Shown here one piece after another: positions 10,918-58,058 of a stretch of 64,000 nucleotides of DNA. The translations under genes and the position numbers were made by a program. The notes under the pieces were generated by a model, which searched no databases, had not been told where the DNA came from, and saw only the letters and a list, made by a program, of their open reading frames with translations. This DNA is from Candidatus Scatovivens faecipullorum (GTDB taxonomy: Bacteria; Bacillota; Clostridia; TANB77; CAG-508): positions 3,694 through 67,693 of the forward strand of contig DVLG01000055.1 in assembly GCA_018715625.1 (NCBI GenBank). The letters are read 5' to 3'. Every line of letters starts with the position of its first letter. Within the stretch, counting starts at the first letter, position 1.

Positions 10918-12969
10918 CTATTTTTGTTCATAGTCATCATCTCTACTTAATGAATCTTTTTCTTCTTTTATAGTACCTTTTGGAATATTAAGATGATTAA
11001 ACTTATTTTGATCTATACCTTGTCTTAATTGTTCATCAAAAGAAATTGGTTGTTCTGTTTTTGAGCTATTACCATTATTAATTTGTTCTTTTGCTTTGTC
11101 TTGATTTTCAGAGTATTCATCTTTTTTTCCAAATACTGCTTGAATAGATGCACCAAGTCTTGCAAAAAATCCTTTTGAATTATCTTTATTTTTCATATCT
11201 CTCATATTAGCAAAAACACGCTTAATTTTTCCTATGAATGAATTATCTTGTTCTACCATTGCCATATTTTGAGATGTTTCTTCAGAAATTTCGTGTTCAG
11301 GACTTGTAACAGTTTCTTGTGTATGTTCTTCAGGAATAATTTTAGTTTCTTCTACTGGATAAAATTGTTCTGATAATTTAGGCGCTTTTGGTTGTTCTTC
11401 TAGCATACTTTGCTTTGTTTGCTCTGTATTAGCTTGTTCTTTTTGAGCTTCAATAGCAGATACATTCATATCTACTGCATTATCTTGAAAATATTGACTA
11501 ACTATTTCTCCTAATTCGCCATCTAATTGTGCATCTCTTTCTTGAATGTGTTCTTGATTTATGGCTTTATCAAATTGTTCAAAAAATTCTTTTTTTTGTT
11601 CTTCATTACCTAAAATATTAAACAATTGACCATTGAAATTTACTTTTGATAATAATCCAGCTATTGATTGCTCCATACCAAATTTAATTAGTTTTTTATT
11701 AAAAAATTGACATAGTCTATCATTCTTCCATGTTGATAATTCTTTAATTTCATCATCATCTATTCTGCTTAAAAAATTAATGTATGTACTCAAATTCTCT
11801 TTTATTTCTTCTTGTGAAAAATTTGCTTTTGCTAATGCACTAGGAATTTGTTCGATTTCTTGTAAAAGTTTCATATTAAGATTCGTTTTTTGAGAATCTA
11901 ATACATTTGATACATCTGAAAATGCTACTTTTTTAGTTATTCTATTTTTAACACTAGGCAAATCAGATGACAATCTACGTATCTTTGTTTTATCAGGTTT
12001 CTTTTGAGTTTTACTTTCTGATGTTAGTGACTTAGGATTTTTTACTACTTTCATTCCATAACGGCGAACTCTATCTTGACTTTTTTGCATTCTCTCTACT
12101 ACTTGCTCTGTTAATTTTCCCTCTTTCTCCATAGCAGCATGCATTTCATCAGATGCTTGAATGTGCTGTTCGTTAAAGAATTCTATAACCTTATTTGCTA
12201 ATATTTTTTTATCTTTGAAAACATCTTCCAATGTCATTTTTGGGTTTTGCCTAGCCAAAAAGTCTGTAAATCCCATAAAATCTGGACTGTTTTGTATTTC
12301 ATTAATATTGACATCTCCCCAAAAAGTTATAGCATCTTCTTCTGACATTTCTTTACCATCTGCAATCCATTCATAAATTTCTTTATTAGTCTTGCTAGCT
12401 TCTTCTAATGTTGATTGATCTTTTTCATTAGTTGCTTTCAAACTATCTTGATGTAACATATCAGCATAGTCTTTAGCTACTTTTGCTTGTTGAGGTTTAG
12501 ATAAATTACTCCAATTTCTTATTATTATTTTTCTATCTTCATTAGATAAATTTCTAAAATTGTTTACCATTTTATCTACTACAGCTACTGTTAATATATT
12601 TTCTACTATATACCTCTTGTCATTTTTTAATACATAAGGAGCATCTCTTCTTAAATCTATACCCTCGCGCTCTGCTTCCTCGATTTTAGCTTTTACAATT
12701 GTTGCAGTTATTTTTGTTACTCCTAATATGTCTATATTTCCAACGCTATCAATAAACCCTTTAAACTTTTCATCAGGATCTACAGATAATTCTTGAAGCA
12801 CTAATTCTTTCCCCACATCGTTTAGAACTGATATAGCAGAATTAATACTTTGAGCTATAGAATCTTTTTCTTTGTCTTGCTCTACAAGAGATTTTAACTT
12901 AAACGAATTATTATTTTTTACTATCTCATCTACAATAGCATTTACTTTATTAGGATTTCCACCTGCCAT
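10918..12969 (-). CDS. large hydrophilic protein of unknown function
   Basis: 683-aa uninterrupted ORF, E/K/Q/D-rich, predicted helical. No catalytic motif, signal peptide or known domain recognised. Confidence 0.6.
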   Translation of the reverse strand: MAGGNPNKVNAIVDEIVKNNNSFKLKSLVEQDKEKDSIAQSINSAISVLNDVGKELVLQELSVDPDEKFKGFIDSVGNIDILGVTKITATIVKAKIEEAEREGIDLRRDAPYVLKNDKRYIVENILTVAVVDKMVNNFRNLSNEDRKIIIRNWSNLSKPQQAKVAKDYADMLHQDSLKATNEKDQSTLEEASKTNKEIYEWIADGKEMSEEDAITFWGDVNINEIQNSPDFMGFTDFLARQNPKMTLEDVFKDKKILANKVIEFFNEQHIQASDEMHAAMEKEGKLTEQVVERMQKSQDRVRRYGMKVVKNPKSLTSESKTQKKPDKTKIRRLSSDLPSVKNRITKKVAFSDVSNVLDSQKTNLNMKLLQEIEQIPSALAKANFSQEEIKENLSTYINFLSRIDDDEIKELSTWKNDRLCQFFNKKLIKFGMEQSIAGLLSKVNFNGQLFNILGNEEQKKEFFEQFDKAINQEHIQERDAQLDGELGEIVSQYFQDNAVDMNVSAIEAQKEQANTEQTKQSMLEEQPKAPKLSEQFYPVEETKIIPEEHTQETVTSPEHEISEETSQNMAMVEQDNSFIGKIKRVFANMRDMKNKDNSKGFFARLGASIQAVFGKKDEYSENQDKAKEQINNGNSSKTEQPISFDEQLRQGIDQNKFNHLNIPKGTIKEEKDSLSRDDDYEQK

Positions 12970-37075: not shown

Positions 37076-37151
<76 letters not shown>

Positions 37152-38838: not shown

Positions 38839-40755
38839 ATGGATGATGAAAAAATTTTAGATGTACTAAATAAATATATAGAAAATCCTAAAATGCAATA
38901 TGCAATTTTAATTGATGGAGACTGGGGAAGTGGAAAAACATATTTCATAAAAACTAAATTTGTAAAGAATAATAAGAATATTATATATATACCTCTAAAT
39001 GGAATAAAAAATAGGGAAGATATAGATAAAAAGATATATTATAAAATATTAGAAAATAATATGCCAGAGAAAATTACAAAATCAAAAGGATTTTCAGCTT
39101 TTAAAAAAACTAGTGGGGCTATTTTTGTTATTTCTAATGAAATTATAAAAAATGTATTTAAAATAGATATTTCTGGAGTAAAAAATTTAAATGCTAGTGA
39201 GATAATAAGTTTATTCAAAAATATATCTGATTATGTAATAGTATTTGATGATTTAGAAAGATGTGAAATGCCTATTAGTGAAACTTTAGGTTATATTAAT
39301 GATTATGTTGAACATAAAAATGTAAAATGTGTTATAGTTGCAAATGAGCAAGAGATAAATAAAATTAATTATGACAATAATTATGAATTAAAAGTAATGT
39401 CTTGTTTAAATGATAATATAGATTATGGCGAAAAACAAGGAAAAGATATATTTACTAAAATAAATAATGAAGAAAATAAAAAAGTAGATATACCTAAAAT
39501 TAAAAATAGAATTTTAAATATGTACGATGGAAATAAAAAATATAAAGCAATAAAGGAAAAGTTGATTGGTATAACAATTAAATATATTCCTGATATTAAT
39601 AAAGTATATGATCAATTAATAGTGGAATATAAAAAAAAGAATAAAGATTTATATGAATTTTTAAAAGAAAACAAAAATAAATGTATCAATATTATAAAAC
39701 TTAATAATTGCAATAACATAAGAACTATGATTTTTATATTAGATAGATTTGAAATTTTATATAACGAAATAAATAGATTAAATATAGATAAAAAATATTC
39801 AATTATCAATCTAGTATTCATTAATGTGATATTTTCTTCAATAGGAATAAAGAAAGGAATAGATATTAAACAAATATTATCTGGAGTAATGTATTCTAGT
39901 GCTGCATGCTTAACAGAAGATGTAAGACAAAATAATAATAATTATTATACGGCATTTAATTTTGTTGATGATTTTATACTTGATGGGAATATTGATAGAA
40001 GTAAAATGTTAGGAAGTATACAATATTATTTAGATATTAATTATGAAAATATAGAAGATGATGATCCTTATAATAAATTAAAAGTTTACTGGGAATTGGA
40101 AGATGATGAAATAAAAAATGCTATGCAAGAAATTTTAGTTAATATAAAGGCTAATAAATATAATTATAAACTATTTCCTAAAATAATATATAGTTTATCA
40201 TGTATAGAAAATTTAAATTTTGAAAAGGAAATAATTCAAGAAATCATTACTGAAATGGGAAAATACATTGAAAACAATGAGATTGATTATATAGATTTTC
40301 ATGTTTTTACTAGAGATGAGCAAGTGACTAAAATATATAACAAAAATATAAAATATATTAAAGATAAAATGGCTTTTAGTAGTAAAAATAAAAACATTAT
40401 TAATTTAAAGGATATATTTGAGTCAAAAGATTGGGGAGTAAAACTGAATGAATATATAAGAGAACAAGATTGTATTGAAAAAAAACAATTTTTAAATGAA
40501 TTTGATATAGATACTATTGTAGAAAAAATAAAGAATAGCAATAGTAAAAATATTTATAATTTTAAATATTGCATTGACAGAATATACAATTTTTCAAATT
40601 TAAAGGACTTTTATATAAATGATCTTGAAAAGATGGAACAATTAATAGAAAAATTAAAAGATATCGATAAAGACAGTTTTGGAATTACAAAAAAAGAAGC
40701 TATAGAATACCTAATTAAAACATTAAAAGAAAAGATAAAATTATTAGAACAGTAA
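38839..40755 (+). CDS. KAP-family P-loop NTPase
   Basis: 638 aa. Walker A GDWGSGKTYF. Walker B in the KAP-typical context YVIVFDDLERCEMP. Long helical C-terminal region. Confidence 0.75.
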   Translation: MDDEKILDVLNKYIENPKMQYAILIDGDWGSGKTYFIKTKFVKNNKNIIYIPLNGIKNREDIDKKIYYKILENNMPEKITKSKGFSAFKKTSGAIFVISNEIIKNVFKIDISGVKNLNASEIISLFKNISDYVIVFDDLERCEMPISETLGYINDYVEHKNVKCVIVANEQEINKINYDNNYELKVMSCLNDNIDYGEKQGKDIFTKINNEENKKVDIPKIKNRILNMYDGNKKYKAIKEKLIGITIKYIPDINKVYDQLIVEYKKKNKDLYEFLKENKNKCINIIKLNNCNNIRTMIFILDRFEILYNEINRLNIDKKYSIINLVFINVIFSSIGIKKGIDIKQILSGVMYSSAACLTEDVRQNNNNYYTAFNFVDDFILDGNIDRSKMLGSIQYYLDINYENIEDDDPYNKLKVYWELEDDEIKNAMQEILVNIKANKYNYKLFPKIIYSLSCIENLNFEKEIIQEIITEMGKYIENNEIDYIDFHVFTRDEQVTKIYNKNIKYIKDKMAFSSKNKNIINLKDIFESKDWGVKLNEYIREQDCIEKKQFLNEFDIDTIVEKIKNSNSKNIYNFKYCIDRIYNFSNLKDFYINDLEKMEQLIEKLKDIDKDSFGITKKEAIEYLIKTLKEKIKLLEQ

Positions 40756-42062: not shown

Positions 42063-42095
42063 AAAGTAGTACAAATTATAAGTACTACTTTTTAT
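42063..42095. terminator. bidirectional hairpin between convergent genes
   Basis: AAAGTAGTAC (42063-42072) / GTACTACTTT (42082-42091). Confidence 0.6.
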
Positions 42096-43330
42096 TTATC
42101 TTGTTCATCTACCCATTTCGCAAATTCTTTATTAGAAATTTTTCCAGAGCATACATCCTTATACATTTGTTTTCCAGTTTTTCTATATTCTTCCAAATCT
42201 TTTTGATACATATCTATTTCAGGATTTCGTTTAGCTCTAAGTTGTTTTCTACTTCCGATTTTTCTATATTTATCATATGTTGTATCATTTTCTTTTTTTC
42301 TTTTTTGATATTCTTTATTCCCAATATCTTTACATGTCATATTGTCTTTAGTAATTCTATCACAATAAGTAACAGTCTCTTTATGAGTTATAAAGTATCT
42401 TCCACAATTACCACAAATTTTAATATGCATTTTGTTTACAGCAACTACATTGAATAAGGTAATATAAAAACTTGTAAATAAGTTAGTAGTTTCAAATTGT
42501 TGAAGACTATTAAGTTTTCTACCAGTAGGATCTATTTCCTCAATGGCAGAGACCAAAACATTTATATCTTCAAGTCCAATTAATTCTTTTCTTATAGGAA
42601 AGTCATTATATTGATAATCCAATAAGTCTGTTGAATGAAAGTCTCGTTTAATTTTTGTAAAAGTATCCTGATATAATTGATTGTATAAGAAAAATATTTG
42701 TTTATGTGTTAAATATTTCATATCAAAAGGATTATTAATTTTATAAACGAAATTAACACATTTCTTAAAAAGACTTTGATAATATATTAAATTCCCCTTT
42801 TCTTTATCATAGTATTTTTTAGCTATCCCAATTATTTCATTTATAGGATATAAAGTATCTAATTCAATATACTTAATATCTTTATCATCTAATTTATCTA
42901 TAAAATAATCAAAGAAATTTATAAAAAACAATAAATAATCATTAAATACATCAAAATTATAGCTTATAAAATCTAATAAAGATAGATCATAGTGTTCAAC
43001 AGAAGATGTTGGCTCAAAAACTATATAACCTTTTAAATCTTCTACATTATCTTTAAAAGAAAGAGGAACAGACTCAACAGTTTTATCAATTTCTACTATT
43101 GATTTTAATTCACTTATTATTTTTTCTCTTTCTGATTCAGAATTTGCATTTTCCAATTCTAAAACTAATTGCCCAAATTTTTCATCAGGTGGAATAGTCC
43201 TTAAATTTGCTAAATATTTATTATTAGTTTTGCTTATAGGTTTACTCAAATAAGATCCAGAAGTATGGATAAATATTTGAGCAAAATATGAAGCATCAAA
43301 AGAAATACCTATTTTATTTTTTCTTTCCAT
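42092..43330 (-). CDS. zinc-ribbon protein typical of this class of clostridial integrative elements (DUF6076-like)
   Basis: 412 aa. C-terminal CGNCGRYFITHKETVTYCDR...MTCKD Cys cluster followed by a basic helical tail. Lies between integrase-side cargo and the xis/replication module. Family name from memory, not verified. Confidence 0.45.
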   Translation of the reverse strand: MERKNKIGISFDASYFAQIFIHTSGSYLSKPISKTNNKYLANLRTIPPDEKFGQLVLELENANSESEREKIISELKSIVEIDKTVESVPLSFKDNVEDLKGYIVFEPTSSVEHYDLSLLDFISYNFDVFNDYLLFFINFFDYFIDKLDDKDIKYIELDTLYPINEIIGIAKKYYDKEKGNLIYYQSLFKKCVNFVYKINNPFDMKYLTHKQIFFLYNQLYQDTFTKIKRDFHSTDLLDYQYNDFPIRKELIGLEDINVLVSAIEEIDPTGRKLNSLQQFETTNLFTSFYITLFNVVAVNKMHIKICGNCGRYFITHKETVTYCDRITKDNMTCKDIGNKEYQKRKKENDTTYDKYRKIGSRKQLRAKRNPEIDMYQKDLEEYRKTGKQMYKDVCSGKISNKEFAKWVDEQDK

Positions 43331-48439: not shown

Positions 48440-51400
48440 ATGGAAGGAAAAGAAATTATAGATAATATCATAATTGGTAGAGTTGAGCCATATATTTATG
48501 CATTTACAACTAATACTGTGCCTAACTATTTAAAAATAGGTGATACATATAGACCTGTTAAAATTAGACTAAATGAATGGAAAAAATATTTTCCTGATTT
48601 AAAAGAAGAATATAAAGAAAAAGCTATGATTAATTCAGATGTCTTTTTTAGAGATTATTCTGTACATAAATATATTGAAGAAGAATTAGGAAAGGCAAGA
48701 TTAAAAGAAAAAGATATATCAAAAGAAATCTATTATTCAAATGAATTTTTTAAGAATGCTATAGATACAGATGTGAAAGAGGCTATTGAAGATATTAAAG
48801 AAAGTTATGAAAAAAATGATAATAAATATCAGTATTATGATGCTAACACAAGTCTTCCAGAAATATTTCAGTATAAGAGAGAAGAAAAAGAATGGCAGCC
48901 AAGACCAAATCAAAAAGAAGTAATTGAGAATTTTAAAAAGGCAAGAAAAAATGGAAGAAAAAATTTACTTATGTATGCAGTTATGAGATTTGGGAAATCT
49001 TTTACTTCAATGATGTGTGCAAAAGAAATGAATGCAGATTTAGTAGTAATTGTTTCTGCAAAAGCGGATGTAAAGCTTGAATGGAAAAGAAATGTTGAAA
49101 TCCCTAAAAATTTTGAAGGGTATAGTTTTATTACTGCTGAAGAATTATCGAGAAATAATAATGAAATAAGTGAAAGATTATCTAAAGGTGAAAAGGTAGT
49201 TGTATTTTTGACATTACAAGATTTGCAAGGTGATTTAATTAAAGAAAAGCATAAGGATTTATTTAAAAATAAAATTGATTTATTAATCGTTGATGAAACT
49301 CATTTTGGAGCAAGAGCAGAGAAATATGGTAAAATATTAGAAAGTACAAAATATGAAAAAGATATAAAAGATAAGCACCATAAAGAAGAAAGTAATATTA
49401 ATGACTTAAATGAAAATTTAAAAATTTTAGATGTTGATACGACATTACATTTATCAGGAACACCTTACAGAATATTGATGGGAAGCGAATTTGAAAAAGA
49501 AGATATTATTTCTTTTTGCCAATTTTCAGATATAGTAGAAGAACAAGAAAAATGGAATAATGAGAATATTTTAAATGATGAAATTAAAGAATGGGATAAT
49601 CCATATTTTGGTTTTCCACAGATGGTAAGATTTGCTTTTAATCCAAGCAAAAAGGCAAAAGAAAAATTAAAGGAATATCAGAAAAATGGATATACATATG
49701 CTTTTTCTGCTTTATTAAAACCAAAATCTATAAAAAAAGCAGATGATGATTCTCATAAAAAATTTGTAAATGAACAAGAAATATTAGAGCTTTTTGAAGT
49801 TATTGACGGATCTAAAGAAGATGAAAATGTATTGGGATTTTTAAATTATGACAAAATAAAGCAAGGCAAGATGTGTAGGCACATTGTGTGTGTTTTACCA
49901 TATTGTGCATCATGTGATGCATTAGAAGAATTAATAAAGAATAACAAGAATAAGTTTAAAAATCTAAATGAATATGAAATTATTAATATTTCTGGAGTAG
50001 ATAATTCTAATCAATATAGGACTATTGCTGAAATAAAAGATAAAATTAGAGAATGTGAAGAAAATGATGTGAAAACATTAACTTTGACAGTTAATAGAAT
50101 GCTAACAGGTTCAACAGTTGAACAATGGGATACGATGATTTATTTAAAAGATACATCATCTCCTCAAGAATATGATCAAGCTATTTTTAGATTACAAAAT
50201 CAGTATATTAAAAAATATGTAGATAATGAACAAAATGTTATAAAGTATAATATGAAGCCACAAACATTATTAGTGGACTTTGATCCATATCGAATGTTTG
50301 TATTACAAGAGCAAAAATCAAAGATATATAATGTAAATGTAGAAGAGTCTGGAAATTCATTGCTAGAGGAAAGGTTGAAAAATGAATTAAGAATTTCACC
50401 AATAATTACAATAAATAAAAACAAGATTGTAGAGATTGAACCTAAGAATATAATGGATGCCGTAAGTGAATATTCAAAAGAAAAGGGTGTAATGGACGAA
50501 GTAAATGATATTCCAGTAGATTTAAAACTATTAGAGAATGATGAAATAAAAAATGTTATAGATAGACAAGCTGAACTTGGCTCAAATAAAGGATTATCAG
50601 TAGATAATACCAGTGATGAAGATGGAGATGATTTAGATACATCTACATTTGATTCAGAAGATAATACAAATGGCGATACAACAGATAGTAATGGTAGTGA
50701 AGAAAATATAGAAATAAATAATGAAGAATCAGTAAATTATGAGAAAAAAATTCGAACATATTTTGCTAGAATATTATTTTACTCCTTTTTAACTAAGGAT
50801 GATGTTATTTCTTTACTTGATGTGGTTAAAAGTATTGATTACACTGAAGATAATAAGAGAATTGCAAAAAATCTGGGGCTAAATAGTATTATATTAAAAC
50901 TGATGAATGACAGTATGGACGTCTTTAAATTAAGTCAATTGGATTATAAAATACAGAATATCAATAAGTTATCACATGATGAATCATTAAAAACGCTAGA
51001 ACGAGCAGAAGTTGCAATGAATAAATTTAAAAAAATATCACAGTCTGAAATTATTACACCAATAAATGTATGCAAAAATATGTATGATTTAATTGATAAA
51101 AAAGAATTAATAGAAATATGCAATAATAACGGAAAAATTCTAGATATTGCTAGTAAAATGGGCGAATTTTCAATAGGATTGTATGAAGTATTATTAGAGA
51201 TAGGTCTTAGAAAGGACAATTTTAATAATATAATTTATTCAATACCAACATCTAGTATTGCATATGAGTTTACAAGAAAAATATACGATATACTTGGATT
51301 AAATATAGAAAATATTGCTCTATTATTTAATAGTTATGATTTATTAAGTATAAAAGATAGAGATGGAAATGTAGACTATAACGAACTAAACAATTATTTA

Positions 51401-52528
51401 TTGCAAAATAAAAAATTTAATGAAATAGAATTAGAGAAAAATATGTTTTATGTTAAAGGAGATGAAAGAATGAAATTTGATTTAGTAGTTGGAAATCCAC
51501 CATATCAAGAAGAATCAAATAGTAAAAGTAGTAGTAATGCTCAAAAACCAAGAACTAATATATTTCAACATTTTCAAGAACAGGCAATGTCTCTTACTCA
51601 TAATAAAACAGTATTAATTTATCCAGGAATTAGATGGATACATCAATCAGGAAAAGGGTTAAAAAAATTTGGATATAATTTAATTAATAATTGTAACCTT
51701 GAAAGAGTATCTTTTTATCCAAATGCCAAAGAAATATTTGATGATACAGATATACCAGATGGAGTAGCAATAGTAGTAACAAATAAAAATAAAAAAGATA
51801 GTGGATTTAAATATGATTATATTGTAAATAACAAAAGTGTTTCCTTGAAACAGAATAATCCAGGAGATGATTTATTAATTATTAATCCTAAAGATATAGA
51901 TATTGTTGAAAAAATTAAACAATTTGTAGTGAAAAATAATTTAACATTTTTAAGTAGTGAAATTTTGCCTAGAGGAGATTCTTTATTTGGTATAGATAAT
52001 GATTTAATTATAAAAAATAAAGAAAAATCAGAATTATTTAATGGACAAATCATTGACTATAAAAATAAGATTAAAGTGCTAACTAACGATAAACCTGGTC
52101 CAGCAGGAAGAACAATGTGGTTCGTAATTGATAAAGATTTAATAGCTAAAAATGTAAAATATATTTCTGAATGGCAGGTAGTTGTTTCTAGTGCACATCC
52201 AGGAGGACAGGATGGAAGAAATAATCAGTTAGCTATTGTAGATAATCATAGTGCTTTTGGTAGGGCAAGAGTAGCTTTAAAATCTTTTGAAACAGAAAAA
52301 GAAGCTAGTAACTTTAAGAAATATATTAATAGCAAATTTGTAAAATATGCATTATTATTAACAGATGAGGCTTTAACATCATTGGCAAAATATGTACCAA
52401 ATTTTAAAAATTATATAGATAACACAATAATTAACTTTTCTGAGCCAATAGATGTTCAATTATATCAATTGATTGGATTAACTGAAGATGAAATAAAATA
52501 TATTGAATCAAAAGTTAAAGAAAATTAA
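48440..52528 (+). CDS. fusion protein: GIY-YIG-like (T5orf172-type) domain + SF2/SNF2-like helicase + gamma-class N6-adenine DNA methyltransferase with Eco57I/TaqI-like C-terminal region
   Basis: 1362 aa. N-terminus YIYAF...YLKIGDTYRPVKIRLNEW...SNEFF. Helicase motif I AVMRFGKSFT, II LLIVDETHFG, III LHLSGTPYR, V/VI LTGSTVEQWD...QAIFRLQNQ. Acidic D/E/S/T linker. MTase motif X SEIITPINVCKNM, motif I-like KILDIASKMGEF, motif IV DLVVGNPPYQ. Confidence 0.7.
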   Translation: MEGKEIIDNIIIGRVEPYIYAFTTNTVPNYLKIGDTYRPVKIRLNEWKKYFPDLKEEYKEKAMINSDVFFRDYSVHKYIEEELGKARLKEKDISKEIYYSNEFFKNAIDTDVKEAIEDIKESYEKNDNKYQYYDANTSLPEIFQYKREEKEWQPRPNQKEVIENFKKARKNGRKNLLMYAVMRFGKSFTSMMCAKEMNADLVVIVSAKADVKLEWKRNVEIPKNFEGYSFITAEELSRNNNEISERLSKGEKVVVFLTLQDLQGDLIKEKHKDLFKNKIDLLIVDETHFGARAEKYGKILESTKYEKDIKDKHHKEESNINDLNENLKILDVDTTLHLSGTPYRILMGSEFEKEDIISFCQFSDIVEEQEKWNNENILNDEIKEWDNPYFGFPQMVRFAFNPSKKAKEKLKEYQKNGYTYAFSALLKPKSIKKADDDSHKKFVNEQEILELFEVIDGSKEDENVLGFLNYDKIKQGKMCRHIVCVLPYCASCDALEELIKNNKNKFKNLNEYEIINISGVDNSNQYRTIAEIKDKIRECEENDVKTLTLTVNRMLTGSTVEQWDTMIYLKDTSSPQEYDQAIFRLQNQYIKKYVDNEQNVIKYNMKPQTLLVDFDPYRMFVLQEQKSKIYNVNVEESGNSLLEERLKNELRISPIITINKNKIVEIEPKNIMDAVSEYSKEKGVMDEVNDIPVDLKLLENDEIKNVIDRQAELGSNKGLSVDNTSDEDGDDLDTSTFDSEDNTNGDTTDSNGSEENIEINNEESVNYEKKIRTYFARILFYSFLTKDDVISLLDVVKSIDYTEDNKRIAKNLGLNSIILKLMNDSMDVFKLSQLDYKIQNINKLSHDESLKTLERAEVAMNKFKKISQSEIITPINVCKNMYDLIDKKELIEICNNNGKILDIASKMGEFSIGLYEVLLEIGLRKDNFNNIIYSIPTSSIAYEFTRKIYDILGLNIENIALLFNSYDLLSIKDRDGNVDYNELNNYLLQNKKFNEIELEKNMFYVKGDERMKFDLVVGNPPYQEESNSKSSSNAQKPRTNIFQHFQEQAMSLTHNKTVLIYPGIRWIHQSGKGLKKFGYNLINNCNLERVSFYPNAKEIFDDTDIPDGVAIVVTNKNKKDSGFKYDYIVNNKSVSLKQNNPGDDLLIINPKDIDIVEKIKQFVVKNNLTFLSSEILPRGDSLFGIDNDLIIKNKEKSELFNGQIIDYKNKIKVLTNDKPGPAGRTMWFVIDKDLIAKNVKYISEWQVVVSSAHPGGQDGRNNQLAIVDNHSAFGRARVALKSFETEKEASNFKKYINSKFVKYALLLTDEALTSLAKYVPNFKNYIDNTIINFSEPIDVQLYQLIGLTEDEIKYIESKVKEN

Positions 52529-52563
52529 TAACAAGCAACATAAAGATAGAAAGGATGATTTAT

Positions 52564-54360
52564 ATGCCAAATTTTGAAGTGAATAATGTATCAGTAAGTA
52601 CTTTATTAGGATTTGTAAGTGATGAAACTATTGCTATTCCTGAAATTCAAAGGCCATTTGTATGGGATTCTACAAAAGTAAGAAATTTAATAGATTCGTT
52701 ATATAAAGGTTATCCAGTAGGATATATAATTACATGGAAAAGCCCAGATGTAAAATTAAAAGATGGAACATCTTCTGAAGGAAAACAAGTATTAATAGAT
52801 GGGCAACAAAGAATAACAGCATTAACAGCAGCTTTATTGGGACAAGAAGTATTGGATAGTAATTATAAAAAGAAAAGAATAAAAATTGCTTTTAATATAA
52901 AAGAGGAAGAATTTCAAACATTAAATCCTGCAATAGAGAAACAAGATGAATGGATACCAGATATATCAGAATTTATGAAAGATGGAAATATAGATACATG
53001 GCAATTTGTTACTGATTATTCAAATAAATATGAGATGAGTCCAAATGAGGTAAACAAAAGAATTAATAAATTATTAGCAGTAAAGAATGTTACTATCGGA
53101 AGAATAGAATTAGGTTCATCATTAGATATAGATACAGTTACAGAAATATTTGTTAGAATTAATTCTGAAGGTGTAGTTTTATCTCAAGCTGATTTTGCTA
53201 TGTCAAAAATAAGTGTTAATGAACAATATGAAGGAAACGATATAAGGAAAGCTATAGACTATTTTTGCCATTTTGCTAAAACTCCTGTTGATTATGATAA
53301 TATAAAAAATAATGATATTGAATTTAGCAAAAAAGACATATTTAAGCAAATTAAATGGATAAAAGATAAAAATGAAGATTTATATTTACCTTCTTATACT
53401 GATGTTTTAAGAGTGGCATTTACATATAAATTCAAAAGAGGAAAATTATCTGATTTAGTAAGTTTATTATCAGGACGTGATTTTGAAACTAGAGAATACC
53501 GTGAAGATATAGTTGAGGATAGTTTCAAAACGTTATATGATGGTGTGAAACAATTTGTAAATCAAAGCAATTTTGAAAGATATATTATGATATTAAAATC
53601 TGCTGGTATTATAGATGAGAGTTTGGTAAGATCTCAAAATGTTTTGAATTTTGGATATATATTGTATTTAGTATTGAGAGAAAAGAATATTGAGCCAAGT
53701 AAAATCCAAACTCTAGTAAGAAGATGGGTTGTGATGTCTATTCTAACTCAAAGATATACTTCATCTCCTGAATCAGCTTTTGACTATGATATTAGAAGAT
53801 TAAATGATAATCAAGATATTGAAAAGTATATTAGAGAGGAAGAAGAAAGACAATTAACAGAATCATTCTGGACAAATTACTTAGTAGATAGACTAAATAC
53901 ACCTGTTACAAGTAGTCCTTTCTGGAAAACATTTTTAGCAGCACAAATATTTTTAGGAGATAGAGGATTTCTATCAGATAGTATAAAAGTGCAATATCTG
54001 ATTGAAAATAGAGGAGATGTACACCATATTTTTCCTAAAGATTATTTAAAAAAGAATGGATATAACAATAAACAACAATATAATCAAATCGCAAATTTTA
54101 CTATGTTGCAAACAGAAATAAATATTGCAGTAAGTAACAGAGCTCCAAAGGATTATATGGCAGATATTAAAGCACAATGCAATGGAGAAGAAAATAAATA
54201 TGGATTAATTAATTCAGAAAAAGATTTATATAAAAATTTAGAAGAAAGTGCTATACCTAAAGATATAATTAATATGTCCGTTGAAAATTATGAGGAATTT
54301 TTACAGAAAAGAAGAGTTTTAATGGCTAATAAGATTAGAAAATACTTTAATAAATTATAA
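52564..54360 (+). CDS. GmrSD-like DUF262 + DUF1524/HNH protein (type IV, modification-dependent restriction family)
   Basis: N-terminal IPEIQRPFVW and IDGQQRITAL (DUF262 signature). C-terminal GDVHHIFPKDYL...NQIANFTMLQTEINIAVSN (His-Me/HNH-like DUF1524). ATG 52564 is preferred to 52555 on RBS spacing. Confidence 0.75.
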   Translation: MPNFEVNNVSVSTLLGFVSDETIAIPEIQRPFVWDSTKVRNLIDSLYKGYPVGYIITWKSPDVKLKDGTSSEGKQVLIDGQQRITALTAALLGQEVLDSNYKKKRIKIAFNIKEEEFQTLNPAIEKQDEWIPDISEFMKDGNIDTWQFVTDYSNKYEMSPNEVNKRINKLLAVKNVTIGRIELGSSLDIDTVTEIFVRINSEGVVLSQADFAMSKISVNEQYEGNDIRKAIDYFCHFAKTPVDYDNIKNNDIEFSKKDIFKQIKWIKDKNEDLYLPSYTDVLRVAFTYKFKRGKLSDLVSLLSGRDFETREYREDIVEDSFKTLYDGVKQFVNQSNFERYIMILKSAGIIDESLVRSQNVLNFGYILYLVLREKNIEPSKIQTLVRRWVVMSILTQRYTSSPESAFDYDIRRLNDNQDIEKYIREEEERQLTESFWTNYLVDRLNTPVTSSPFWKTFLAAQIFLGDRGFLSDSIKVQYLIENRGDVHHIFPKDYLKKNGYNNKQQYNQIANFTMLQTEINIAVSNRAPKDYMADIKAQCNGEENKYGLINSEKDLYKNLEESAIPKDIINMSVENYEEFLQKRRVLMANKIRKYFNKL

Positions 54361-54363
54361 ATT

Positions 54364-54417
54364 AAAGAAAAGCAAAATAATGATGTAGTTTTTTTACATG
54401 ATTATTTTGCTTTTTTG
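54364..54417 (+). terminator. terminator hairpin, copy 1 of a ~55-nt repeat shared with 59442-59498
   Basis: AAGCAAAATAATGATGTA / TACATGATTATTTTGCTT stem followed by TTTTG. AGAAAAGCAA.ATAA..ATGTA...ATTATTTTGCTTTTTTG is shared with the Fic terminator. Confidence 0.7.
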
Positions 54418-54431
54418 TGGGAGATGAAAAA

Positions 54432-54866
54432 ATGTTTAATAATAAGGAAATAGGTAATAAAATTAAAAATTTAAGAAAAATAAATGGATATACTCAAGAA
54501 GAAATAGCGGAAAAACTTGATATAGGAGATAGAATTAAAATATCAAGAATAGAAAATGGCAAGCAAAGTATGACTGCAAATGAAATGATCAAATTTTGTA
54601 AATTATTAAATATTAGTTTGGATAGTTTGATTAATAATGAAAATTTGTCATCTGAAGACTTTATAGATATATCAAAAAGATATATTTTTAATGAAAAAGT
54701 TGATATTGAAGAACGAAAAGAAGTGGTAAAAAAATTATATATTGAATTAGCTAATAAAGAATTATCTAATATTGATATGTATAACCAGATGAACAAAAAT
54801 AATTCAAAAGTTAAAGAAAGTTCAAATAATGCAATAGAAAAATATAAAATTGATGATATAATTTAA
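54432..54866 (+). CDS. XRE-family helix-turn-helix regulator with a C-terminal extension
   Basis: IGNKIKNLRKINGYTQEEIAEKLDIGDRIKISRIENGKQSMTANEMIKFCKLLNISLDSL. ATG 54432 is preferred to GTG 54417. Confidence 0.7.
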   Translation: MFNNKEIGNKIKNLRKINGYTQEEIAEKLDIGDRIKISRIENGKQSMTANEMIKFCKLLNISLDSLINNENLSSEDFIDISKRYIFNEKVDIEERKEVVKKLYIELANKELSNIDMYNQMNKNNSKVKESSNNAIEKYKIDDII

Positions 54867-54883
54867 AATAAGAGGTGAAATGA

Positions 54884-56545
54884 ATGAATATTGTAGAATT
54901 ATTAAAAGCAAAGGAAAACACGGTTACATTATTATATTATGGGAAAAATGATATGGCTAGTGGATTTCAAGTTAAAACATTAATTGATAATTTTGATGAT
55001 ATAAATAATTATTATAATACTAAAACACTAAAAATTGATAATTTAGATGATTATATAGATTATATTTTTATTGATACATTTTCACAGCTAAAAGAGATAT
55101 TACCAATGGTGCGAGACGATTTAAAGAAAAAAGTATCTACAGCAATTAATGATATAATTGCTGTTAAAGAAAGGTATAAAAAAAGAGATATTAATAAATA
55201 TATAAAAAATAATTATGAAATTATTTTATCAAGGGAAAAATTGAAACAGTATGAACTTAGAGCATATGAAATAATTGAATATTCTTTAAATTATATAAAG
55301 TCAAATTTCCAATATTTTAAAGAAAACTATGAATTATACAAATATATTGTTGAGAACTATGCATATAAAATATTTTATAATTTTAATGATTATAGAGATA
55401 TTTTTATGAAATATCCTGAATTAAATGATGTACTATTTTCAAAACAAATAATAGAAGGACAAATGTCTACAAAAATAAAGGACTTAAAAGATGCATTAAA
55501 AATGATTAAAAAGAACAATGTAAAACTATTTAAGGACAGTATAGGAATAGTATATAATATGGTAAAAAAAAGATCTTTTAATACTGATATCGAAAAAGTT
55601 ATGTATACTTATGATGATATAAAAGAAACAATGAGACTATTTGAGGCTCTTGGAGAAAATGCATTATATGACGAATTTAATGAGGAATTAAAAAAACAAG
55701 ATATAATTTTGAATGATTATATAGTAAAAAATGGATATCATTCAAAATTTGAAATAAGCATAAATGATTTGGTAAAAGTATTTGAGGATGAAAAATTAAG
55801 TTGGGAAATAAAATCATTGATGATAACACATACTAGAAGAAATAATAAGATGTGCAGTAGAATCCAATCTGCCATTGAGAATAAAGTTCAATCACAACTA
55901 ATAGATAAGATTGGTTCTACTAATATAGATGTAAATGATTATTTTACGTATTCAGTTCAAAATCATTTATCTATAACAATGATATTAGGAAAGTTAATGA
56001 TAAATTATATGCTTTCAGATGATTATAGATTTAAAGAGTTAATTAATTATATGTTTGCAGGTATAGCAAATTATATTGAACAAAATAATATTGACATTCC
56101 AAATATAGATGATGATTTTAATATGTTGAATTATGCACTAAAAAATTTATTAATTGAAAATCAAAAAGAAGAAAGAGATAATTTAGTTTGTGAATACTGG
56201 AATTATAATGTATTACATTTAAGTATTGGAATTATAGAAAAAGTATTAAGGGAAATATGTTATAAATTTATAATTGTAAACAAATATATACCATATAAAA
56301 ATTTAACAATAGATAATATTTTGTCATTGCCAGAAACAGAAAATTTCATGGGACAAGCTAACATTAGAGCTTTTAGATATTATTTAACATCTTATAATAC
56401 TGTTGGAAAAAATTTAAGAAATGATATTTGTCATTATAATAATAATATAAAGGAAATCTGCACATATGAAAATGTATTAGAAGTAATTTACATTCTTTTA
56501 ACAATAAGTAATGAATTATTATTAAAAATTATAGAAAAGAAATAA
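54884..56545 (+). CDS. large helical protein with a DUF4209-like / HEPN-motif C-terminus
   Basis: 553 aa, AGAGGTG RBS, 17 nt after the XRE gene. C-terminal ...RAFRYYLTSYNTVGKNLRNDICHYNNN (LRN and R-x4-H). Confidence 0.5.
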   Translation: MNIVELLKAKENTVTLLYYGKNDMASGFQVKTLIDNFDDINNYYNTKTLKIDNLDDYIDYIFIDTFSQLKEILPMVRDDLKKKVSTAINDIIAVKERYKKRDINKYIKNNYEIILSREKLKQYELRAYEIIEYSLNYIKSNFQYFKENYELYKYIVENYAYKIFYNFNDYRDIFMKYPELNDVLFSKQIIEGQMSTKIKDLKDALKMIKKNNVKLFKDSIGIVYNMVKKRSFNTDIEKVMYTYDDIKETMRLFEALGENALYDEFNEELKKQDIILNDYIVKNGYHSKFEISINDLVKVFEDEKLSWEIKSLMITHTRRNNKMCSRIQSAIENKVQSQLIDKIGSTNIDVNDYFTYSVQNHLSITMILGKLMINYMLSDDYRFKELINYMFAGIANYIEQNNIDIPNIDDDFNMLNYALKNLLIENQKEERDNLVCEYWNYNVLHLSIGIIEKVLREICYKFIIVNKYIPYKNLTIDNILSLPETENFMGQANIRAFRYYLTSYNTVGKNLRNDICHYNNNIKEICTYENVLEVIYILLTISNELLLKIIEKK

Positions 56546-56554
56546 GGTGGTTTA

Positions 56555-57553
56555 GTGTTTGAAAATATATTAAATGAATTAAATAATTTAAAATGTTATA
56601 ATTATAAGATTGATATTCCAGTGGATGAGGAAGGCTATATTGATAAAGAATGTCCAAATCAAGAGTGCTTATATCAATTTAAAATTTTTGCTGAAGATTG
56701 GAAAAATATTTGTAAAGATGAAGCGATATACTGTCCAAGATGTGGAAAAACGGCTACATCAGATAAATGGTTTACAACAGAACAAATAGAAGAGAGTAAA
56801 AAAAGAGCAATAGAATCTATAAACTATAGAATTGGTAGTGCATTAGAAAAAGATGCAAGAATTTTTAATAGAAAACAAAAAAATAATTTTATAAAATTAA
56901 ATATGAAGGTATCTGGATTTAAAAAATTTGAGAATAATTTACCTTTATCATGTAAAGAATTAATTGAACAAAAAGTAGAATGTAAACATTGTCATACCAG
57001 ATATGCTGTTATTGGTTCTGCATTTTATTGTCCAGCATGTGGGCAAAATTCAGCAATTAATACATTTGAAGAATTTATTAAAACAACATACTCAAAATTA
57101 AATAATTTGGATAGAATTAACGACGCAATAGAAAACAAGGATGATGCTAATAGAATAATAAGATCTTTGTTAGAAAGTATTCCAAATGATTTGGTAGAAT
57201 CAATACAGTGCTTAAGTGAAGCTGTATATGATTCGTTGCCAAATAAAAAGATATTAAAGAAAAATCTTTTTCAGAGAATTGATGATAGCAATAAGCTATG
57301 GAAAGAAGCTGTTGGCACTTCATTTGAAAATTGGTTAACTAATAATGAGTTTGAGAGGATGAAAGTATATTATCAAAGAAGGCATCTTTTAATACATACT
57401 AATGGAATTGTTGATGAAGAGTATTTAAATAAAACAAATGATAGTAATTATAAAGTTGGAGAAAGAATTGTTTTTGATCAAAAAAGTGCATTAGAATTTA
57501 CTAATATTATAGAAAAGGTAGGAGAAGGAATAAAAAAAATAAGTGAAGAGTGA
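56555..57553 (+). CDS. double zinc-ribbon protein with a C-terminal HEPN-like helical domain
   Basis: 332 aa, GTG start 9 nt after the upstream stop (AAGGTGG RBS). CPNQEC...CPRCG and CKHCH...CPACG ribbons. C-terminal YYQRRHLLIHTNGIVDEEY (R-x4-H). Confidence 0.45.
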   Translation: MFENILNELNNLKCYNYKIDIPVDEEGYIDKECPNQECLYQFKIFAEDWKNICKDEAIYCPRCGKTATSDKWFTTEQIEESKKRAIESINYRIGSALEKDARIFNRKQKNNFIKLNMKVSGFKKFENNLPLSCKELIEQKVECKHCHTRYAVIGSAFYCPACGQNSAINTFEEFIKTTYSKLNNLDRINDAIENKDDANRIIRSLLESIPNDLVESIQCLSEAVYDSLPNKKILKKNLFQRIDDSNKLWKEAVGTSFENWLTNNEFERMKVYYQRRHLLIHTNGIVDEEYLNKTNDSNYKVGERIVFDQKSALEFTNIIEKVGEGIKKISEE

Positions 57554-57782
57554 TGATAATGTTTTTCATTACAGGCAATGTTAATTTACAATTTAAAAGA
57601 TATAACGAGGATAGATTTCTAATATACGCTGAAAATGCATATAAAAAGTATTTCTAAACAAACTGAAAATTTGCGGAAAATTAAGCTAATTTAACAGGAG
57701 TTTTGTGACAAAATTACAGAATGCAAATTCAAAAAGTCACGAATTGAGAAGGTTTGAAAACAAGTAAATAATAAAAAACAAA

Positions 57783-57826
57783 AACTCTAGTTATACTAAT
57801 TTATAAACTAGAGTTCTTATTTTTTC
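57783..57826. terminator. bidirectional terminator
   Basis: AACTCTAGTT (57783-57792) / AACTAGAGTT (57806-57815), with A-rich sequence before and T-run after. Confidence 0.65.
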
Positions 57827-57869
57827 TTTAAATTCATATAAAGCGCCTATTCCTTTCACATAAATTTAT

Positions 57870-58058
57870 TTAGAAAAATGAAACTATAAATTTCAAATAT
57901 TCTTTTTGAACAAAATTAAGATTATAATTTTTATCGATTTCATTAGATAAAGTTTCTTTAATGCAATCCTTGTACGAAATATTACCATATGATGCATTAT
58001 AATAGAAATTAATTTTGTTCAGTAAGTTATAATTTGAAATCAAATATAATTCCGCCAT
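57870..58058 (-). CDS. small hypothetical protein
   Basis: 62 aa. Strong AAGGAGGTG RBS 6 nt upstream of the ATG on the minus strand. No family. Confidence 0.45.
   Translation of the reverse strand: MAELYLISNYNLLNKINFYYNASYGNISYKDCIKETLSNEIDKNYNLNFVQKEYLKFIVSFF

Follow-up and report, generated by a model that had tools for sequence, protein, structure and literature searches.

A 64,000-nucleotide (nt) stretch of contig DVLG01000055.1 (positions 3,694 to 67,693; Candidatus Scatovivens faecipullorum, assembly GCA_018715625.1), referred to below as the window, carries within a defence island three consecutive genes that an earlier note, made from the letters alone, took to be one module. The gene neighbourhoods of 110 related loci do not bear this out, and the reading that we favour, with moderate confidence, is of two separable modules: an effector of the HEPN class controlled by a regulator of the XRE type, and, embedded behind it, an independent zinc-ribbon effector that is HEPN-like. 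The regulator (XRE, 144 amino acids, aa) is encoded at 54432-54866, its ATG 8 nt past GGGAG; the 553-aa HEPN protein, here called pB, has its open reading frame (ORF) at 54884-56545, and the 332-aa zinc-ribbon protein, here called pC, is encoded at 56555-57553 from a GTG past GGTGG, all on the + strand. The ORF calls agree with the note that the three share a strand with spacings of 17 and 9 nt, and there is no terminator between them; the two modules are probably co-transcribed here. Do tight spacing and common terminators make a system? The caution for annotation is that they do not, as the units inherited here are a pair of genes and a single gene.

Two genes plus one

Six lineages carry XRE next to pB, namely the window, L023, L018/L032, L001/L016, L010-13 and L017, and at least four different genes stand upstream of the pair in them. 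An XRE orthologue lies directly 5′ of pB in every one of the six lineages in which pB is at least 54% identical to that of the window, a conserved hairpin included, and the identities of XRE and pB run in step (87.5/87.3%, 60/66%, 59/56% and 62/54%, respectively). The full trio is restricted to the window, L018/L032, L023 and L001/L016, L002 being the L001 lineage again, cut off within pB. The other two of the six (L010-13 and L017) are without pC and have a helix-turn-helix (HTH)-Fic gene after pB, and three distant pB relatives (24-28% identity; L014, L015, L019) have neither XRE nor pC as partner. Seen from the other side, pC occurs without pB at 71%, 63%, 55% and ~45% identity in many contexts, and pB adjoins it in only 2 of 52 dereplicated pC clusters. 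Co-occurrence was what the earlier note itself had named as the measure by which its module could fall, and by that measure the trio falls and the XRE–pB pair stands: XRE and pB are found without pC in two lineages, and pC is mostly found without pB. In a neighbour-joining tree the pC copies of the trio loci form one clade, nested among pC from other contexts, and as they are monophyletic a single capture event behind XRE–pB is indicated; the simplest history that the sequences suggest would be a single acquisition of one pC lineage on the downstream side of an already existing XRE–pB, and joint inheritance from then on.

The XRE–pB pair and its hairpin

An all-helical N-terminal region of ~440 aa with TPR-like repeats makes up most of pB and is followed, at ~aa 445-553, by a HEPN-type domain; the AlphaFold2 model (predicted local distance difference test, pLDDT, 89.4) is likewise all helical. 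Pfam PF13910 is matched by 35 of 37 pB homologues, the best at 1e-6 and several above the cut-off, such as P0064 with 26.5 bits where 22.3 bits is the threshold. E452, R512, N513 and H517 are invariant in the 37 homologues, down to 22% identity, and R456, which completes an E-x3-R pair, is kept in at least 90% of them. The motif RNDICH (R512, N513, H517) is at 56417-56434 on the + strand, its translation confirmed; the string TVGKNLRNDICHYNNN, with which the protein had been said to end, is indeed present, 33 residues short of the C-terminus and not at it. What the earlier note associated with DUF4209 is so upheld by the match of PF13910 to 35 of 37 homologues together with the invariance of R512, N513 and H517, and pB, judged by profile and motif, is a member of the DUF4209/C6orf70 HEPN family. 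Few genomes have this clade: 185,579 species representatives yielded 4 loci, all of them in metagenome-assembled genomes of Clostridia/Lachnospiraceae, and no homologue of pB was found in phage (GenBank phages, IMG/VR) or plasmid collections.

XRE is a Cro/C1-type HTH protein (Pfam HTH_19 at 2e-12, HTH_3 at 7e-10) with its HTH at ~aa 7-71 and then a conserved C-terminal extension of ~70 aa. PADLOC matches it with HTH_VI, PDC-M69A, Control_protein (1.6e-7) and capH (3e-5), and NCBIfam gives weak matches of the HTH region to the HipB, PezA, HigA and MqsA antitoxin families; the NCBIfam scan gave nothing beyond generic HTH and zinc-ribbon noise. All of the matches cover the generic HTH region only and the ~70-aa extension is without any family match, with five aligned orthologues having a mean column identity of 76%. 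XRE is predicted to be a regulator and/or an antitoxin of pB.

Immediately before this gene is the first of the two strong terminators between which the cassette had been placed. Both hairpins are real, and the upstream one is not simply the terminator of a preceding gene. It is a palindrome, AAAAGCAAAATA-N23-TATTTTGCTTTT (54368-54414, + strand), which ends 4 nt 5′ of the XRE ribosome-binding site, and the region 54361-54440 has a folding energy of -23.5 kcal/mol (z -6.75; reached by 0 of 200 shuffles) with a T run after. The arms, of 12 nt each, are 21-24 nt apart. The six XRE–pB lineages have in common the outer arms AAAAGCAAAATA/TATTTTGCTTTT, the AAGA that flanks them and the distance to the ribosome-binding site GGAG, the sole exception in the arms being a single base change in the left arm in L001/L016. 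The hairpin is kept though the proteins of those lineages can be only 54-66% identical to the window's, and what lies upstream of it varies (a GmrSD-like gene, DUF4268, a helicase fragment, an unrelated 610-aa gene). The hairpin belongs, as a conserved element, to the XRE–pB cassette, of which it marks the 5′ boundary.

In 1.07 Mb of loci scanned no pC-only locus has such a hairpin, and elsewhere it was found only at the Fic–HamA junction of the window, 5′ of Hachiman (59446-59494, + strand, ~80% identical), and 5′ of CBASS in L018 and L032. In the latter pair the copies are at 6484-6530 and 11924-11966 (L018) and at 3813-3859 and 9253-9294 (L032), the second copy in each preceding the first gene of the CBASS operon and abutting its ribosome-binding site. 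A hairpin of ~47 nt then recurs at junctions between defence cassettes, and might serve as a terminator that they share, as an operator, or as a junction that eases the exchange of cassettes. Because the inner stem differs between lineages and the arms stay invariant, it would be the sequence itself, and not only the hairpin shape, that is recognised, which argues for a role such as that of candidate XRE operator. Rfam gave no RNA family in 54200-59600, and no known riboswitch or leader thus accounts for the hairpin. A weak -10/-35 pair within the palindrome is only a reading of its letters. A clearer promoter-like element, TAGAAA-16 nt-TATAAT with a TG extension (TAGAAA-16-TGATATAAT), is contained in the 3′-terminal part of the XRE gene at 54835-54862 (+ strand), just 5′ of the pB ribosome-binding site. 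It scores 10/12 in a consensus scan, with the TG extension of an extended -10, and its -35-like and -10-like blocks are kept in the six lineages; it may be a candidate XRE-independent promoter for pB and pC.

pC and where it is found

A double zinc ribbon (aa 16-165), a long helix and a helical C-terminal domain (aa 166-332) with an R-H-x3-H motif are the parts of pC. The two CxxC...CxxC ribbons described earlier are there, all four CxxC pairs being found in the translation, and 7 of the 8 cysteines are invariant in 52 homologues with the eighth, C146, in at least 90%. Also invariant in the 52 are N237, R276, H277, H281, G284, D287, Y290 and D296. The motif RHLLIH (R276, H277, H281; 57380-57397, + strand) is confirmed in translation. 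Whether its R and H are conserved in homologues had been put forward as a check, and 142 out of 143 representatives with <50% mutual identity retain R276, H277 and H281; nearly all of those representatives that retain the N-terminal region have the cysteines. R-H-x3-H agrees with the published HEPN consensus R-phi-x3-H, in which phi is N, D or H. In the AlphaFold2 model (pLDDT 90.9) the motif is within helix 263-281, and ~20 of the top 50 Foldseek matches in the PDB are HepT/HEPN toxins (E about 0.08-1.7, probability up to 0.80, target-normalised template-modelling score 0.42-0.54). Of the proposal that pC is a HEPN protein, the conserved motif in a helical C-terminal domain stands and a HEPN profile match was not found in Pfam; from motif and model together, pC is probably HEPN-like.

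Other searches were unproductive. Profile searches of solved structures, with pC and pC C-terminal alignments as with pB, gave nothing meaningful. Foldseek of pC against viral structures returned three uncharacterised phage proteins only, the best at E 1.5e-4, and no functional lead, and a Pfam scan of the C-terminal domains and of longer pC relatives had no informative fused domains. One fusion among those longer relatives was set aside as a chimera with biotin carboxylase. Another relative, P0186 (575 aa, NCBI), looks like a fusion of a BrxC helical domain with a C-terminus of the pC kind.

In a profile search of 1.84 billion representatives the family of the C-terminal domain amounts to 1,729 clusters at E <= 1e-3, and pC has at least 559 matches in metagenome contigs. 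Type 1 BREX loci contain or adjoin at least 11 of the 52 pC clusters; in most of these pC comes between brxC and pglX, at 11-nt gaps or with overlaps of 8-20 nt. Others are 5′ of a Schlafen-HATPase-winged HTH (wHTH) gene or 5′ of a Fic-wHTH gene; one is between a kinase and a TM2-HNH gene, beside Cas9, and another comes after a relaxase and type IV coupling-protein pair. The family reaches plasmids from other phyla, including those of Aliarcobacter, where it follows a PLD-like gene, and Sinorhizobium, where it follows a P-loop NTPase gene. GenBank phages have none, and in IMG/VR pC is on five viral contigs. The neighbourhoods show no small gene that is a conserved partner of pC.

Nearly always pC directly follows a large gene on the same strand, at gaps of -20 to ~110 nt, examples being at 7001-8002 in L004, 7001-7990 in L104 and 7001-8014 in L008, with further ones in L037-L049, L054, L056-58, L067, L070, L075 and L098. 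The preceding gene is often one for a P-loop NTPase: BrxC, a protein on S. meliloti pSmeSM11a, or a type IV coupling protein. In L033 a DUF6076 protein (2787-3959) is directly upstream of pC. There are also stand-alone double zinc-ribbon proteins of ~130 aa that match the N-terminal half of pC only, as at 5058-5456 of L105 (a Kocuria rosea plasmid), after a gene for a 'nucleotide-binding protein', and in match H13, on an Arthrobacter plasmid. These are probably the true PDC-M14A-type genes, and their existence suggests that the zinc-ribbon module pairs with different effectors.

Proposed mechanism and its alternatives

How might the two modules work? The first would consist of hairpin, XRE and pB, the second of pC. 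Characterised single-HEPN enzymes are homodimers, and HEPN sites need two domains. By analogy two HEPN domains of pB would pair and so create a composite R-N-x3-H site for metal-independent RNA cleavage, with the helical N-terminal region acting as an infection sensor or as an autoinhibitor. XRE would repress the operon, possibly via the conserved palindrome, and may also neutralise pB directly in the manner of a type II antitoxin or the controller protein of a restriction-modification (R-M) system. The zinc ribbons of pC would bind nucleic acid or a partner protein and its R-H-x3-H helical domain would probably cut RNA, making it a divergent HEPN RNase. Both proteins would then be abortive-infection or backup suicide RNases, or addiction toxins, carried as cargo of a ~26.6-kb element at tRNA-Met; RNase activity, toxicity and a part in phage defence are what we infer for them.

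Though the HEPN and defence reading is largely supported, a number of points weigh against it or against the division into two modules. The window pB itself matches PF13910 at 1.3e-3 with 19.2 bits, which is under the gathering cut-off of 22.3 bits, and Foldseek with whole pB gave only TPR/helical-repeat noise and no significant solved HEPN match; since the helical-repeat matches swamp it, that search is uninformative on the HEPN part. For pC, no Pfam model covers the C-terminal domain and no HEPN model was matched, a single one of 26 family members having a weak RiboL-PSP-HEPN match (E 0.012). No single match of its model to a solved HEPN structure is significant, the best being at E 0.08, and profile–profile comparison of pC and pB, full-length and domain-only, gave no similarity. 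The literature searched had no experimental work on DUF4209, PF13910 or PDC-M14, and carriage on mobile elements fits plasmid or element addiction equally as well as phage defence. The hairpin could be merely a terminator, and no consensus sigma-70 promoter was found between it and the XRE start, because of which the clone of 54364-57826 suggested earlier may leave out the XRE promoter. Finally, the 9-nt gap, the common strand and the stable co-inheritance across ~66-91% identity would suit a real functional pB–pC partnership in this clade as well.

One alternative, which we consider rather unlikely, concerns pC only: its C-terminal domain would not be a HEPN RNase, and the conserved R, H, H, D and Y residues would serve, within a helical bundle, to bind a metal or as a site of another kind, catalytic or regulatory. 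Under this view pC might, for instance, be a zinc-ribbon protein that binds nucleic acid and regulates, or assists, systems of the BREX kind. In many loci pC is translationally coupled to BrxC and PglX, the invariant N237, D287, Y290 and D296 lie outside the classic HEPN signature, and the missing Pfam HEPN match, profile similarity to pB and significant Foldseek E-value recounted above point the same way. However, the motif suits R-phi-x3-H and is kept in all but one of the 143 representatives, HEPN toxins constitute ~40% of the top 50 PDB matches while being a tiny share of the PDB, and the family is found also far from any BREX genes.

Would addiction modules that stabilise the element, with XRE as the antitoxin of pB and pC as a solitary toxin restrained in some other way, account for the region? 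The order of an HTH gene and then a large effector gene is typical of type II toxin–antitoxin pairs, XRE has its weak matches to HipB, PezA, HigA and MqsA, the genes of pB and pC are carried by integrative/mobilisable elements and plasmids, and the closest structural matches of pC are the HepT toxins of HEPN-MNT systems. Yet pB and pC, at 553 and 332 aa, are far above the typical size of a type II toxin, there is no conserved small partner gene for pC, and the neighbours are consistently defence genes, with pC even inside BREX operons. We judge it unlikely, while noting that addiction and defence roles are not mutually exclusive.

A further reading, and an improbable one, is that pC stands for a large family of portable plug-in RNases, each of which would work with the large protein encoded just upstream: BrxC in BREX, on plasmids a coupling protein or KAP-like P-loop NTPase, and pB in the clade of the window, where pB and pC would form an asymmetric composite RNase under XRE; were it true the trio would be a real new kind of dual-HEPN system. 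As improbable is an obligate three-gene system, such as a hetero-dimeric composite RNase, which has in its favour the common strand, the 17- and 9-nt gaps with no internal terminator, a trio intact in four lineages from ~91% to 66-71% identity with its proteins diverging in step, and a single HEPN-type motif per protein where a site needs two domains, but against which stand the two lineages with XRE and pB alone, the many contexts of pC away from pB and the homodimerisation of single-HEPN enzymes, which makes a second protein unnecessary.

The island and the mobile element

The two modules, as we take them to be, are set in the kind of surroundings that had been described. On one side are a type IIG enzyme (48440-52528), accompanied by a type II methyltransferase, and a GmrSD_N protein matching HEC-05 (52555-54360). 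On the other are a Fic protein matching PDC-S72 (58325-59437) and Hachiman (59566-62761; HamA, a weak match, and HamB at 1e-50); the HEC-05/GmrSD, PDC-S72/Fic and HamAB matches corroborate the claimed flanks. Related loci carry type I R-M, CBASS and Cas9. That all of this is inside a mobile element is affirmed by an integrase, a relaxase and TnpV, plus an exact 16-nt direct repeat, CTCATAACCCGAAGGT, at 37107-37122 in the anticodon arm of tRNA-Met (37076-37151, which the integrase gene adjoins) and at 63675-63690, just past TnpV. The repeats are likely the attachment (att) sites of an integrative mobilisable element of ~26.6 kb, the content of which is the integrase, a KAP NTPase, replication genes, the relaxase, TnpV and all of the defence cargo. 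The KAP-family P-loop NTPase (38839-40755) and a DUF6076 protein (42092-43330) are encoded on the - strand.

Could Fic be a part of either module? It follows pB or pC in three contexts, yet the Fic proteins (a Fic-wHTH, an HTH-Fic and another Fic-wHTH; 58325-59437 in the window, 8861-9802 in L010, 5775-6710 in L017, 7035-8027 in L025) are unrelated or only distantly related, because of which Fic was rejected as a module part and is regarded as an ordinary island neighbour. A HEPN–Fic neighbourhood was noted in general terms by the 2013 HEPN survey (PMC3710099).

Downstream, a terminator-like hairpin with a T run is at 57783-57826 (+ strand), ~230 nt past the pC stop. The region 57770-57830 has a folding energy of -12.5 kcal/mol (z -3.83; reached by 1 of 200 shuffles) with the T run after, and the hairpin is the probable 3′ end of the transcript. 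A consensus terminator scan missed both it and the hairpin 5′ of XRE, as their stems are AT-rich. From the pC stop to this terminator, 57554-57782 is ~230 nt of non-coding sequence in which Rfam is empty; it may be a remnant or an untranslated tail, and L018 has in its place a metallophosphatase gene that overlaps the pC stop. Within the 770-nt pC–Fic gap is also a divergent small ORF of 62 aa (57870-58058, - strand) with a strong ribosome-binding site, AAGGAGGTGA, and no family match.

Significance

If the predictions hold, the window offers two candidate defence or toxin modules that are easily cloned. Of these, pB would give the first test of a bacterial DUF4209 HEPN protein, with its XRE partner and a cis element; we found no report in the literature of an experimental test of any bacterial DUF4209/C6orf70 protein, and the domain family includes human ERMARD, the activity of which is likewise unproven. 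The pC family, of ~1,700 clusters by profile, is widespread and is missed by current annotation libraries, PADLOC v2 covering only the N-terminal half of pC and Pfam being without a C-terminal model. In the BREX-embedded loci sampled it turns up repeatedly between brxC and pglX, and experiments with it would put the notion of a 'backup effector' for BREX to the test. Of most use as leads are this widespread BREX insert and the conserved palindrome of XRE–pB.

Comparison with known systems

That the trio belongs to no named system, as first supposed, is what PADLOC gives. For pB the nearest kin is C6orf70/ERMARD-DUF4209, with which it shares the PF13910 match, the E-x3-R and R-N-x3-H signatures, the helical-repeat N-terminus and the type IIG, type I or GmrSD enzymes nearby, and from which it differs by the XRE partner and the 5′ hairpin, neither of which was found in the literature searched. 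The 2013 survey (PMC3710099) classed C6orf70/DUF4209 as HEPN, predicted it to be catalytically active in bacteria, and recorded its bacterial members as fused to TPR repeats and in R-M-related operons. XRE resembles the C proteins of R-M systems, CapH and XRE antitoxins in being a short Cro/C1 HTH protein encoded first in its operon and right after a palindrome; the window palindrome, with its 12-nt arms 21-24 nt apart, differs from classic C-boxes.

Structurally, the best recurring matches of the pC model are HepT toxins (5yep, 6m6u and 7ae8 in the PDB), at E 0.3-1.7 and ~10% identity. HepT has a partner antitoxin in the HEPN-MNT arrangement, whereas pC is without an MNT gene nearby and has an added zinc-ribbon half. 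HepT proteins are small helical RNases that have an R-x4-6-H motif and act as dimers.

In annotation libraries the nearest entry is PDC-M14, a two-gene phage-defence candidate of PADLOC-DB v2 (CAS_00078, FAM_02625>>FAM_00494). Its PDC-M14A profile, of 152 positions, matches aa 16-165 of pC almost end to end (4e-16) and leaves the R-H-x3-H domain uncovered, and PDC-M14B has no match in XRE, pB or pC (E <= 1) or in the GmrSD and Fic neighbours (E <= 0.001). Since only A matches, over half the length, and B is absent, pC is a relative of one PDC-M14 component and not an instance of the system. The PDC candidates were recognised as genes lodged within BREX, DISARM or type I R-M systems, a position like that of pC.

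The best functional analogue of pC is HEC-08 (10.1101/2024.01.29.577857), a HEPN and zinc-finger protein that is embedded in a larger system and was shown to defend, defence being lost when the motif histidine was mutated. The likeness is in a single protein, a HEPN domain with a zinc module, and the embedding; the differences are that HEC-08 has HEPN (DUF3644) first and zinc fingers after, whereas pC has its zinc ribbons first, and that the host system is Hma for the one and BREX for the other. The HEC-08 models in PADLOC-DB v2 matched neither pB nor pC, though HEC-05 matched the GmrSD neighbour.

Within BREX operons 'backup suicidal effectors' have been proposed as a second line of defence (PMC12839542), and HEPN nucleases of the PrrC/RloC type are embedded in R-M loci (PMC3710099). 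pC is like the backup effectors in lying between brxC and pglX, and a Schlafen-HATPase-wHTH gene is frequently close by; PrrC and RloC carry ABC ATPase domains and pC is without one. The main text of that 2026 BREX survey (PMC12839542) names no zinc-ribbon HEPN family. The presence of pC in BREX matches the idea of 'guilt by embedding' (10.1101/2024.01.29.577857), and the pB and pC modules are, in the end, unnamed variants of a very common kind of immune effector, of which hundreds of like candidates exist.

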